Part shown: positions 62,735 through 62,990 of the stretch, in pieces
How the letters are laid out: each line of letters opens with the position of its first letter
Numbering within the stretch: position 1 is the first letter of the stretch
DNA from: Escherichia phage MiataMamis
DNA: 64,000 bases
Reading direction: 5' to 3' (one strand)
Sequence record: PP925834.1
Translations under genes and position numbers: made by a program
Notes under the pieces: generated by a model
What the model was told of the DNA's origin: nothing
Database searches by the model: none
What the model saw: the letters and a program-made list of their open reading frames with translations, nothing else

Positions 62735-62990
62735 TTGTCAAGTTCGCCGCAGGGTGGTATTCCCTGCGACTTGTCCAGCGTCCTGGACCAGCAAGACCCA
62801 ACAAGTGGGTTACCAGAGGCCTATTACCCGCGCTTCGGCTCGACCTTGTTACAGGTTGGCTGGGGTCACATCGTCATGTGCTGGCTGCCCCTACCATTTT
62901 AAGTGTGGTGCACTATCAAGCCCTCTAAGGGGAACTCAGTCTTCTCCGAACCCTGTTTCAAAGCATCCGGAGATAAAGCCATCAAATTCA
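62735..62990 (-). other. GC-rich structured intergenic region, candidate non-coding RNA or 5' leader
   Basis: About 250 bp with perfect hairpins (GCAGGG-N7-CCCTGC, GTCCAG-N4-CTGGAC) and no convincing ORF on either strand; bracketed by two promoter-like elements on the minus strand. Confidence 0.35.

Follow-up and report, generated by a model that had tools for sequence, protein, structure and literature searches.

The species 1 and 2 RNAs of phage T4 (rnaC and rnaD) are small stable RNAs encoded on the transfer RNA (tRNA) strand within the phage tRNA cluster and matured together with the tRNAs. GOLLD and ROOL, which are frequently found next to tRNA genes, are structured non-coding RNAs borne by phages and prophages, with strong covariation and an unknown function. 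Antiterminators of the put type bind the β′ zinc-binding domain of the transcribing polymerase and suppress downstream terminators. In phage HK022, put RNA (putL/putR), a processive antiterminator, is described as ~70 nucleotides (nt) in two adjacent structured domains, located just downstream of an early promoter and needing no dedicated protein for its action (PMC9378689). Here, we examine an element of Escherichia phage MiataMamis, an rV5-like phage (Vequintavirus), which lies in a non-coding gap near a tRNA array, at about positions 62735-62990 of a 64,000-nt stretch of sequence record PP925834.1 (hereafter, the window), and compare it with these systems.

The genes at this locus are on the minus strand, and the gap measures 346 nt, between an 80-amino-acid (aa) gene (stop codon at 63033-63031) and a 112-aa gene (ATG at 62684). 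We are highly confident that the minus strand of this gap carries a single copy of a conserved, structured and probably pseudoknotted RNA of a family absent from Rfam 15, the copy lying at the centre of the stretch (62812-62891). The motif is apparently an undescribed, new family within a known kind, that of conserved structured phage RNAs of unknown function.

The conserved domain and its covariation

A sensitive search with 331 nt retrieved, besides rV5-like phages, several hundred T4-like phages, in which 44-60 nt of the element match at 86-88% identity. In T4 itself, the match is found in the denV-vs.8 spacer, just downstream of denV and in the same orientation relative to transcription, and the adjoining hairpin has changed in sequence while keeping its structure. 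Degenerate core patterns were scanned against viral contigs (three scans) and metagenome contigs (one scan), and ~55 distinct cores were left after the removal of chance matches, to which many of the metagenome matches belonged. The provisional family pattern consists of a hairpin P3, [A/G]CCU-RURRNA-AGG[U/C], followed directly by C-N-R-GCC-N5-GCGGUAA.

The shared domain spans 75-110 nt and comprises a helix P1, a helix P2 that encloses P3 together with an almost invariant unpaired junction, and a proposed pseudoknot between the P1 loop and the 3′ tail. P1 lies immediately 5′ of P2, is free in its stem sequence and presents a loop of 13-45 nt with a variable insertion. P2 is formed by 3-5 nt pairing with the nucleotides just after GCGGUAA(N), with one linker base before P3, and the fold as a whole contains ~25 near-invariant unpaired nucleotides.

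In an ungapped alignment of 51 distinct cores, P3 is paired in all 51, with AU-to-GC and UA-to-AU swaps, and the two central pairs of P2 occur as CG 39, GC 10 and AU 1, and as CG 33, GC 8, UA 7, AU 2 and GU 1. Covariation in this alignment was 0.286, compared with 0.094 in shuffles (0/500), and every slid register scored lower. R2, a covariance model in the correct P2 register (the earlier model R1 served for detection only), recognized 81 instances in the collected loci. Pairing is seen in 87.6% of the cells of the R2 alignment. The central P2 pairs there number CG 42, GC 10 and AU 1 for one and CG 36, GC 8, UA 7, AU 2 and GU 1 for the other, with few or no unpaired sequences, and covariation reaches 0.307 versus 0.091 ± 0.013 in shuffles (0/500), the slid controls again scoring lower. 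Two P2 columns of this alignment hold 14 G-U and 15 U-G pairs, which would become A-C mismatches on the opposite strand; they fit only the minus, gene-sense strand and thus argue for an RNA and against a DNA element. The preliminary description of the stretch, made from its sequence, had proposed a structured phage RNA and a covariation analysis in related phages, and both P2 and P3 do covary, so that compensatory changes across lineages and strand-specific G-U pairs now support that proposal.

MAFFT was unable to align the 5′ strand of P1 across types, owing to the variable insertion, and P1 and the pseudoknot were assessed by script. At one position across lineages, P1 has 24 different stem sequences, and it is fully paired in 47 of the 59 distinct sequences, compared with 34% in shuffles. 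The proposed pseudoknot joins the 5′ part of the P1 loop to the tail 3′ of P2, and its pairing sequence varies by lineage:

Window: GCCAG/CUGGU
L044: GAGGG/CCCUU
L122: GAGG/CCUC
Type C: CGGA/UCCG
L087: CUCCGG/CCGGAG
T4-like phages: CGCCGA/UCGGUG, AAACCG/CGGUUU, CACAC/GUGUG, CUCGA/UCGAG and CCUGA/UCAGG

On the rV5-like sequences, RNAalifold, in which pseudoknots are not representable, picked this pairing over P1. Weighing against a firm pseudoknot, the length statistic, when pooled, exceeds shuffles only modestly, and just 3 base pairs are kept in T4 proper; we therefore regard the pseudoknot, predicted from these sequence comparisons, as probable rather than proven in the family.

Anatomy and setting of the window copy

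The preliminary description had presented the stretch as GC-rich (guanine-cytosine-rich), with several perfect hairpins and promoter-like elements bracketing it on the minus strand. The GC fraction is indeed raised (0.535 at 62735-62990 and 0.576 at 62745-62935, versus 0.444 in the whole window and 0.37-0.43 in the flanks), and the hairpins were confirmed by coordinate on the minus strand. A scan for sigma-70-like promoters gave 9 sites, compared with 4.9 ± 2.3 in shuffles, and both bracketing sites are among the four best matches of the region. The features follow in the direction of transcription:

63012..63040, minus: upstream sigma-70-like promoter, TTTACA-N17-TATCAT, with 10/12 matches; kept in close relatives
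62975..62995, minus: 21-nt block, AAAGAUGAAUUUGAUGGCUUU, shared without change by the window group and the diverged L044 group
62944..62972, minus: hairpin H0, CUCCGGA...UUCGGAG, in the window group only and peripheral to the conserved element
62893..62932, minus: 5′ block, with hairpin Ha (CCCC-UUAGA-GGG), CUUGAUAGUGC and hairpin Hb (ACCA...UGGU)
62862..62891, minus: helix P1, GGGG (62891-62888) with CCCC (62865-62862)
62885-62881, minus: 5′ strand of the proposed pseudoknot, GCCAG, in the P1 loop
62880-62867, minus: internal hairpin of P1, CACAU-GACG-AUGUG
62814..62868, minus: motif core, as matched by the covariance model R2 (56.3 bits, E 8e-14); the only copy in the window
62860-62858, minus: P2a, GCC, followed by the linker A
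62856-62843, minus: hairpin P3, ACCU-GUAACA-AGGU
62842-62822, minus: junction, CGAGCC-GAAGC-GCGGGUAA-UA
62821-62819, minus: P2b, GGC, paired with P2a
62812..62816, minus: 3′ strand of the proposed pseudoknot, CUGGU, partner of GCCAG
62748..62809, minus: 3′ block, with hairpins Hc, Hd and He
62809-62797, minus: hairpin Hc, CCCA-CUUGU-UGGG, deleted in L172
62788-62773, minus: hairpin Hd, GUCCAG-GACG-CUGGAC, covarying with UGCUGG/CCAGCA of the L044 group
62768-62748, minus: hairpin He, CGCAGGG-AAUACCA-CCCUGCG, absent from the L044 group and followed by no U run
62713..62741, minus: downstream promoter, TTGACA-N17-TAAAAT, with an extended -10 (upstream TG) and 11/12 matches
62349..62684, minus: 112-aa gene (phrog_3330, predicted product), the next gene 3′ of the element
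62336-62308, minus: further promoter, after the 112-aa gene
62249-61434, minus: array of 7 tRNA genes, found by ARAGORN

The rV5-type conserved RNA covers ~62932 to 62773, optional additions reaching 62972 on the 5′ side and 62748 on the 3′ side, and the blocks of small hairpins on its 5′ and 3′ sides bring the GC-rich stretch in rV5-like phages to ~190-260 nt. Positions 62856-62824 read ACCU-GUAACA-AGGU-CGAGCC-GAAGC-GCGGGUAA, in agreement with the family pattern of P3 and junction, and the copy also has both the P1 pairing (GGGG/CCCC) and the proposed pseudoknot pairing (GCCAG/CUGGU) of the family. It carries one additional G, in GCGG, that is seen in no other family member. No terminator-like site was found in 62700-63050 on either strand. 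The sequence GAGUUCCCC (62937-62929, minus), which we take to be the first 9 nt of the Escherichia coli type I-E CRISPR repeat, is next to a short CCC/GGG hairpin; the match is probably chance, its first bases being changed in the L044 group.

A diverged rV5-like subgroup, composed of L044, L122, L140 and L143 on contigs of 117-137 kb, retains the 5′ block almost unaltered (CCCYUAGAGGGCUUGAUAGUGCACCACAC...AAAAUGGUAGG), though the adjoining P1 is wholly different. P1 changes from GGGG/CCCC in the window group to GGAAC/GUUCC in this subgroup, its internal hairpin from CACAU/AUGUG to CUACG/CGUAG with a GACG loop in both, the proposed pseudoknot from GCCAG/CUGGU to GAGGG/CCCUU or GAGG/CCUC, and hairpin Hd from GUCCAG/CUGGAC to UGCUGG/CCAGCA. 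In the L044 subgroup, a TTGACA-N17-TATACT promoter replaces H0 directly before Ha, ~70 nt further downstream than the window promoter. The 62713..62741 promoter, which separates the element from the next gene, keeps its -35 in the L044 group.

The 21-nt block AAAGATGAATTTGATGGCTTT is identical in the two rV5-like subgroups (L044, L140, L143 and L122 being the other) despite diverged flanks. Here it lies inside a 25-aa open reading frame (ORF; 63013-62936, MMNIQFKDEFDGF...), and in the L044 group in an 8-aa ORF, MKDEFDGF, with its own Shine-Dalgarno sequence. The block at 62975-62995 may be a leader peptide or a nucleic-acid site.

The predicted phrog_3330 product has an N-terminal arginine-rich, AT-hook-like segment, TKKRRRRGRPLK, followed by an acidic tail, and is conserved in Seunavirus relatives, which do not have the RNA motif. 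Pfam and PHROG searches gave no informative annotation for vs.8 or for the two proteins flanking the element (the 112-aa product matching phrog_3330 and no Pfam family).

Two side observations concern tRNA-like sequences. At 61679-61777 (minus), the window encodes a tRNA of 97-99 nt to which ARAGORN assigns a 4-base anticodon, given as tRNA-Lys(TTT) in related records; its score with the Rfam tRNA model is only 37.5 bits. Within it, at 61768-61753, is a terminator-like hairpin, GCCCUUUGGCAAGGGC, followed by a U run, and the tRNA may harbor an insertion or intron. In Cronobacter phage GAP31 (L008 ~2420-2535, minus), an unannotated 300-nt gap in the tRNA array holds GCAGGGUAGG...CCACCCUGCUCCA, which is reminiscent of a long tRNA-like RNA whose acceptor-type stem is closed.

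Distribution, genomic context and known RNA families

The segment 62250-63400 of the window is found in 118 phage records at 95-100% identity, and the core of the motif in more than 800 of 50,697 phage records. Its carriers include T4 and many other Straboviridae, Vequintavirus, Klebsiella phage KpCHEMY26 (N4-like, Schitoviridae), Pseudomonas phage KIL1 (a Pseudomonas syringae phage, Flaumdravirus) and metagenomic phages. A scan of one genome per prokaryotic species for AAGGTCGAGCC-N5-GCGGTAA gave 23 matches, all GC-rich, coding-like and without P3, against an estimated ~17 expected by chance, and no copy of the motif was found in these cellular genomes. No similarity to the element was found in the E. 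coli chromosome collection, and the sole match in the plasmid collection was a record of 137.6 kb, the size of a phage genome, with the whole region at 96% identity; the element is thus not host-derived. Over this region, eighteen records labelled ‘Campylobacter phage’ (MG0656xx, host C. jejuni) share 98.7-99.6% identity with rV5-like phages of E. coli, and their labels or samples look doubtful.

Outside the T4-like phages, the motif is always on the tRNA strand, either within a tRNA array or next to one. In L049 and L136 it has tRNA genes on both sides, in L188 it begins 34 nt after a tRNA, and in L014, L018 and L096 it precedes the tRNAs by 200-330 nt. L045, L086 and L087 have a strong intrinsic terminator +27 to ~+95 nt after the motif and no intervening ORF, the next ORF in L045 starting ~35 nt beyond the terminator. 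In Seunavirus GAP31, 4MG and EC152, more distant Vequintavirinae, the equivalent place upstream of the homologous gene is occupied by tRNA-Cys, Arg, Leu, Arg and Thr. The motif is always co-oriented with the downstream genes, whose functions are unrelated from one lineage to another: it may be followed by vs.8, by tRNAs, by a tail-fibre-like ORF or by nothing.

Several individual records call for comment. Tandem copies of the motif are found at L048 9016-9181, L181 358-523 and L023 5255-5091, and the junction of the second copy is 2 nt shorter, GGUCAGCCCGCGGCGGUAA. In the IMG/VR contig L034 (120,938 bp), a T4-like version of the motif precedes a vs.8 homologue that shares 91% identity with T4 vs.8, and the assembly may be a mosaic or chimera. 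In Escherichia phage UGKSEcP2 (L004 1452-2003), the endonuclease V coding sequence (CDS) continues ~45 codons further 3′ than T4 denV, through the motif, as either an annotation artefact or a read-through ORF. In KIL1 (L192 1539-1781), the motif is overlapped by the CDS vB_PsyM_KIL1_0040, which is annotated as a ‘hypothetical protein’ and runs antisense to the tRNA array.

Rfam 15 at gathering thresholds recognized only tRNAs in the window. With E up to 10, the segment 62250-63400 gave nothing in the element and one chance-level match elsewhere, to STnc410 (15 bits, gathering threshold 50); six loci of other motif types, searched with E up to 1, gave only tRNAs and weak group I intron matches elsewhere. 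The Rfam scan that the preliminary description had suggested was thus negative, and the motif is not a described Rfam family. ARAGORN detected no tRNA or tmRNA in 62700-63050, RF00005 gave no match there at E up to 10, and the Seunavirus tRNAs at the equivalent position show no similarity to the element. In L028, an rV5-like metagenomic contig, 3894-4255 and 4587-4832 match the group I intron model at 25.6 and 31.7 bits (gathering threshold 50), a few kb from the motif.

The motif belongs to none of the known families that could be tested, and searches of the literature on vs.8/denV, on rV5 small RNAs and for motif sequence strings found nothing relevant. GCGGUAA may resemble the 530 loop of 16S rRNA and RNase P RNA, a likeness that could easily be chance, and the P3 loop may resemble a T-loop or the anticodon loop of tRNA-Tyr; the loop variants GUG, AUA and GGA speak against an anticodon mimic. 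The motif may already be among the 8,495 candidate structured RNAs, all unnamed, that were catalogued from IMG/VR in 2023 (PMC10690425).

Proposed function, alternatives and comparison with known systems

We propose, with a probability of roughly 0.4, that the element is an independent stable RNA gene, matured with the tRNA transcripts and acting in trans on a conserved host component. Host sigma-70 RNA polymerase would transcribe it early from the 63040-63012 promoter, on the same strand as the tRNA array, with a transcript starting near 63005, and the host RNases that mature the neighboring tRNAs would release it as a stable small RNA. This RNA would then present its invariant unpaired nucleotides to a partner conserved among gamma-proteobacterial hosts, which, judging by the location of the element, would probably belong to tRNA metabolism or translation. 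An independent RNA is favored by the promoter directly upstream and another before the next gene in both rV5-like subgroups, by the presence of the element between tRNA genes and its ability to end at a terminator, and by its occupying the place of tRNA genes in the Seunavirus relatives. A conserved partner is suggested by the RNA core, which remains >90% identical while vs.8 proteins drop to 36% identity.

Several points weigh against this proposal. In the window no terminator follows the element, so that a defined 3′ end would need processing, and the discrete RNA species is itself a prediction from sequence. In T4-like phages, the motif precedes vs.8, which encodes a P-loop protein, by ~60-70 nt in nearly every case while the upstream gene varies (the exception being L024, with a small gene between motif and vs.8), and some T4-like phages (B′) carry two tandem copies ~110 nt apart upstream of vs.8; both traits would be more expected of cis-regulatory elements. 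Besides, the folding energy of the element is no better than chance for its composition (z = -1.5 for the minus and -1.7 for the plus strand), and the case for structure therefore rests on comparison with relatives.

More broadly, we suggest tentatively that the motif represents a new functional RNA class, also present in T4, whether as a self-cleaving ribozyme, as a riboswitch or RNA sensor, or as a trans-acting RNA docking onto a universal component of tRNA metabolism or translation, which would, for example, manage or protect the phage tRNA supply. If so, the class would have been acquired or retained independently by at least four unrelated virulent phage groups.

A cis-acting regulatory domain, either a riboswitch-like leader binding a ligand or protein, or a processive antitermination or anti-Rho element allowing polymerase to pass terminators or long untranslated tRNA arrays, is possible, though we consider it doubtful. 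It would account for the constant co-orientation with downstream genes, for the short fixed distance that T4-like phages keep to vs.8 across 36-100% protein identity and varying upstream genes, for the tandem copies in the B′ phages and for the order aptamer-terminator-gene in L045, L086 and L087, and the compact, probably pseudoknotted fold with its many invariant unpaired bases would suit it. The rV5-like position just downstream of an early promoter also recalls that of putL in HK022 (PMC9378689). However, the near-consensus promoter before the next gene in the window and the L044 group, together with the promoter before the tRNAs, would bypass such control, and for this reason the structured leader or riboregulator of the next gene envisaged in the preliminary description is weakened in this phage. 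The downstream genes share no function across lineages, the window has neither a terminator nor a platform sequestering a ribosome-binding site, and the aptamer-terminator arrangement is confined to L045, L086 and L087. One carrier, moreover, is an N4-like phage, a type in which single-subunit polymerases of the phage itself transcribe much of the genome.

A self-cleaving ribozyme, or a dedicated signal for cutting polycistronic early or tRNA transcripts, is unlikely, and is considered here by analogy: a pseudoknotted multi-helix fold of 75-110 nt with ~25 near-invariant junction nucleotides recalls the small self-cleaving ribozymes, the motif is restricted to phages, indifferent to the identity of neighboring genes and occasionally tandem, and a place inside tRNA arrays would suit a processing role. 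Yet no known ribozyme family matches the motif, the sequences point to no cleavage site, and the processing of phage tRNA arrays is already performed by RNase P and RNase E of the host.

Far less plausible is a DNA-level element, such as a replication origin, a packaging or recombination site or a protein-binding site with hairpins in DNA. The inverted repeats and high GC content of this island, set in a genome richer in AT, might suggest one, as the preliminary description did for replication or packaging, but the compensatory changes include many one-strand-only G-U pairs, the orientation is always that of transcription, and the motif is found in tRNA arrays and messenger RNA spacers of unrelated phages with different replication and packaging systems.

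Protein coding has next to nothing in its favor. ORFs do exist mechanically, namely 113 aa on the plus strand (62709-63050), 25-36 aa on the minus strand and a TTG-extended frame of 152 aa; a CDS of 25-32 aa is annotated in the gap in some GenBank records, and the KDEFDGF peptide is kept with the 21-nt block in the L044 group. The long plus-strand frame, however, is absent in L143 and L122, where no antisense frame of at least 45 aa is open, and shortened in L044; close relatives differ in the gap by indels of 2, 3 and 10 nt; T4-like phages have the shared core in different contexts and frames; and the small ORF lies 5′ of the conserved RNA domain without covering it. The earlier statement that the stretch has no credible ORF thus needs qualifying as to the existence of frames and stands as to their conservation: diverged relatives retain none of these frames, and the RNA reading is upheld. 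Several ‘hypothetical proteins’ annotated over the motif, including the KIL1 antisense CDS and the small CDSs of rV5-like records, are probably spurious. Decayed tRNA genes or a functionless GC-rich spacer, brought to mind by the Seunavirus tRNA-Cys, Arg, Leu, Arg and Thr at the equivalent position, are refuted by the ARAGORN and Rfam negatives, the lack of similarity to those tRNAs and a core conserved with covariation across phage families, unlike a decaying remnant.

If the RNA reading is true, an unnamed conserved folded RNA is common to T4, the most studied of phages, to rV5-like candidates for phage therapy, to an N4-like phage of Klebsiella and to a phage of Pseudomonas syringae. Its invariant unpaired nucleotides and freely varying helices suggest a precise molecular partner or a chemical activity, and its habitual location in tRNA arrays ties it to the question of why virulent phages carry tRNA clusters and odd stable RNAs. 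The motif is short, has a clear model and resides in genetically tractable phages, so these hypotheses are directly testable.

By analogy, the way of working of the element would be closest to that of T4 rnaC/rnaD, GOLLD/ROOL-type RNAs, put RNA or small pseudoknotted aptamers and ribozymes. With lambda nutL-N, in which the arginine-rich N protein binds the boxB hairpin, it shares the order of promoter, RNA hairpin and small protein with an N-terminal arginine-rich segment (here TKKRRRRGRPLK, in the 112-aa product), a parallel that is at most a possible lead. P3 (ACCU-GUAAnA-AGGU) is superficially like boxB (GCCCU-GAAAA-AGGGC). Unlike nutL-N, the motif is far more widespread than the 112-aa protein, which is missing from the T4-like, KpCHEMY26 and KIL1 loci; the Seunavirus homologues of the protein have no motif upstream; and there is no boxA. 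Pseudoknotted riboswitch aptamers and small ribozymes (twister, pistol, hatchet) resemble the motif in size, fold, invariant junctions with covarying stems and occasional tandems, and differ in that the motif has no Rfam match, no consistent downstream gene function and no expression platform.

The likeness to HK022 put is positional only, in that the window element also follows an early promoter, and the part of the source drawn on here describes no pseudoknot for put (PMC9378689). In addition, and unlike put, the motif also occurs at a great distance from promoters, within tRNA arrays and at the 3′ ends of transcripts, and in the window a promoter lies downstream of it. GOLLD and ROOL, at ~500-800 nt, are several-fold larger, belong to other hosts and phage groups and gave no Rfam match in the window or related loci; they share with the motif their phage origin, structured non-coding nature and strong covariation. 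In T4, the motif copy between denV and vs.8 is ~6 kb from rnaC/rnaD, to which it has no relation in sequence or structure, and in the rnaC/rnaD/tRNA region R1 with filters off gave nothing above 8 bits and R2 nothing. What the motif would have in common with rnaC and rnaD is the route that we propose for it, that of a small stable RNA transcribed on the tRNA strand of a phage and matured together with the tRNAs.

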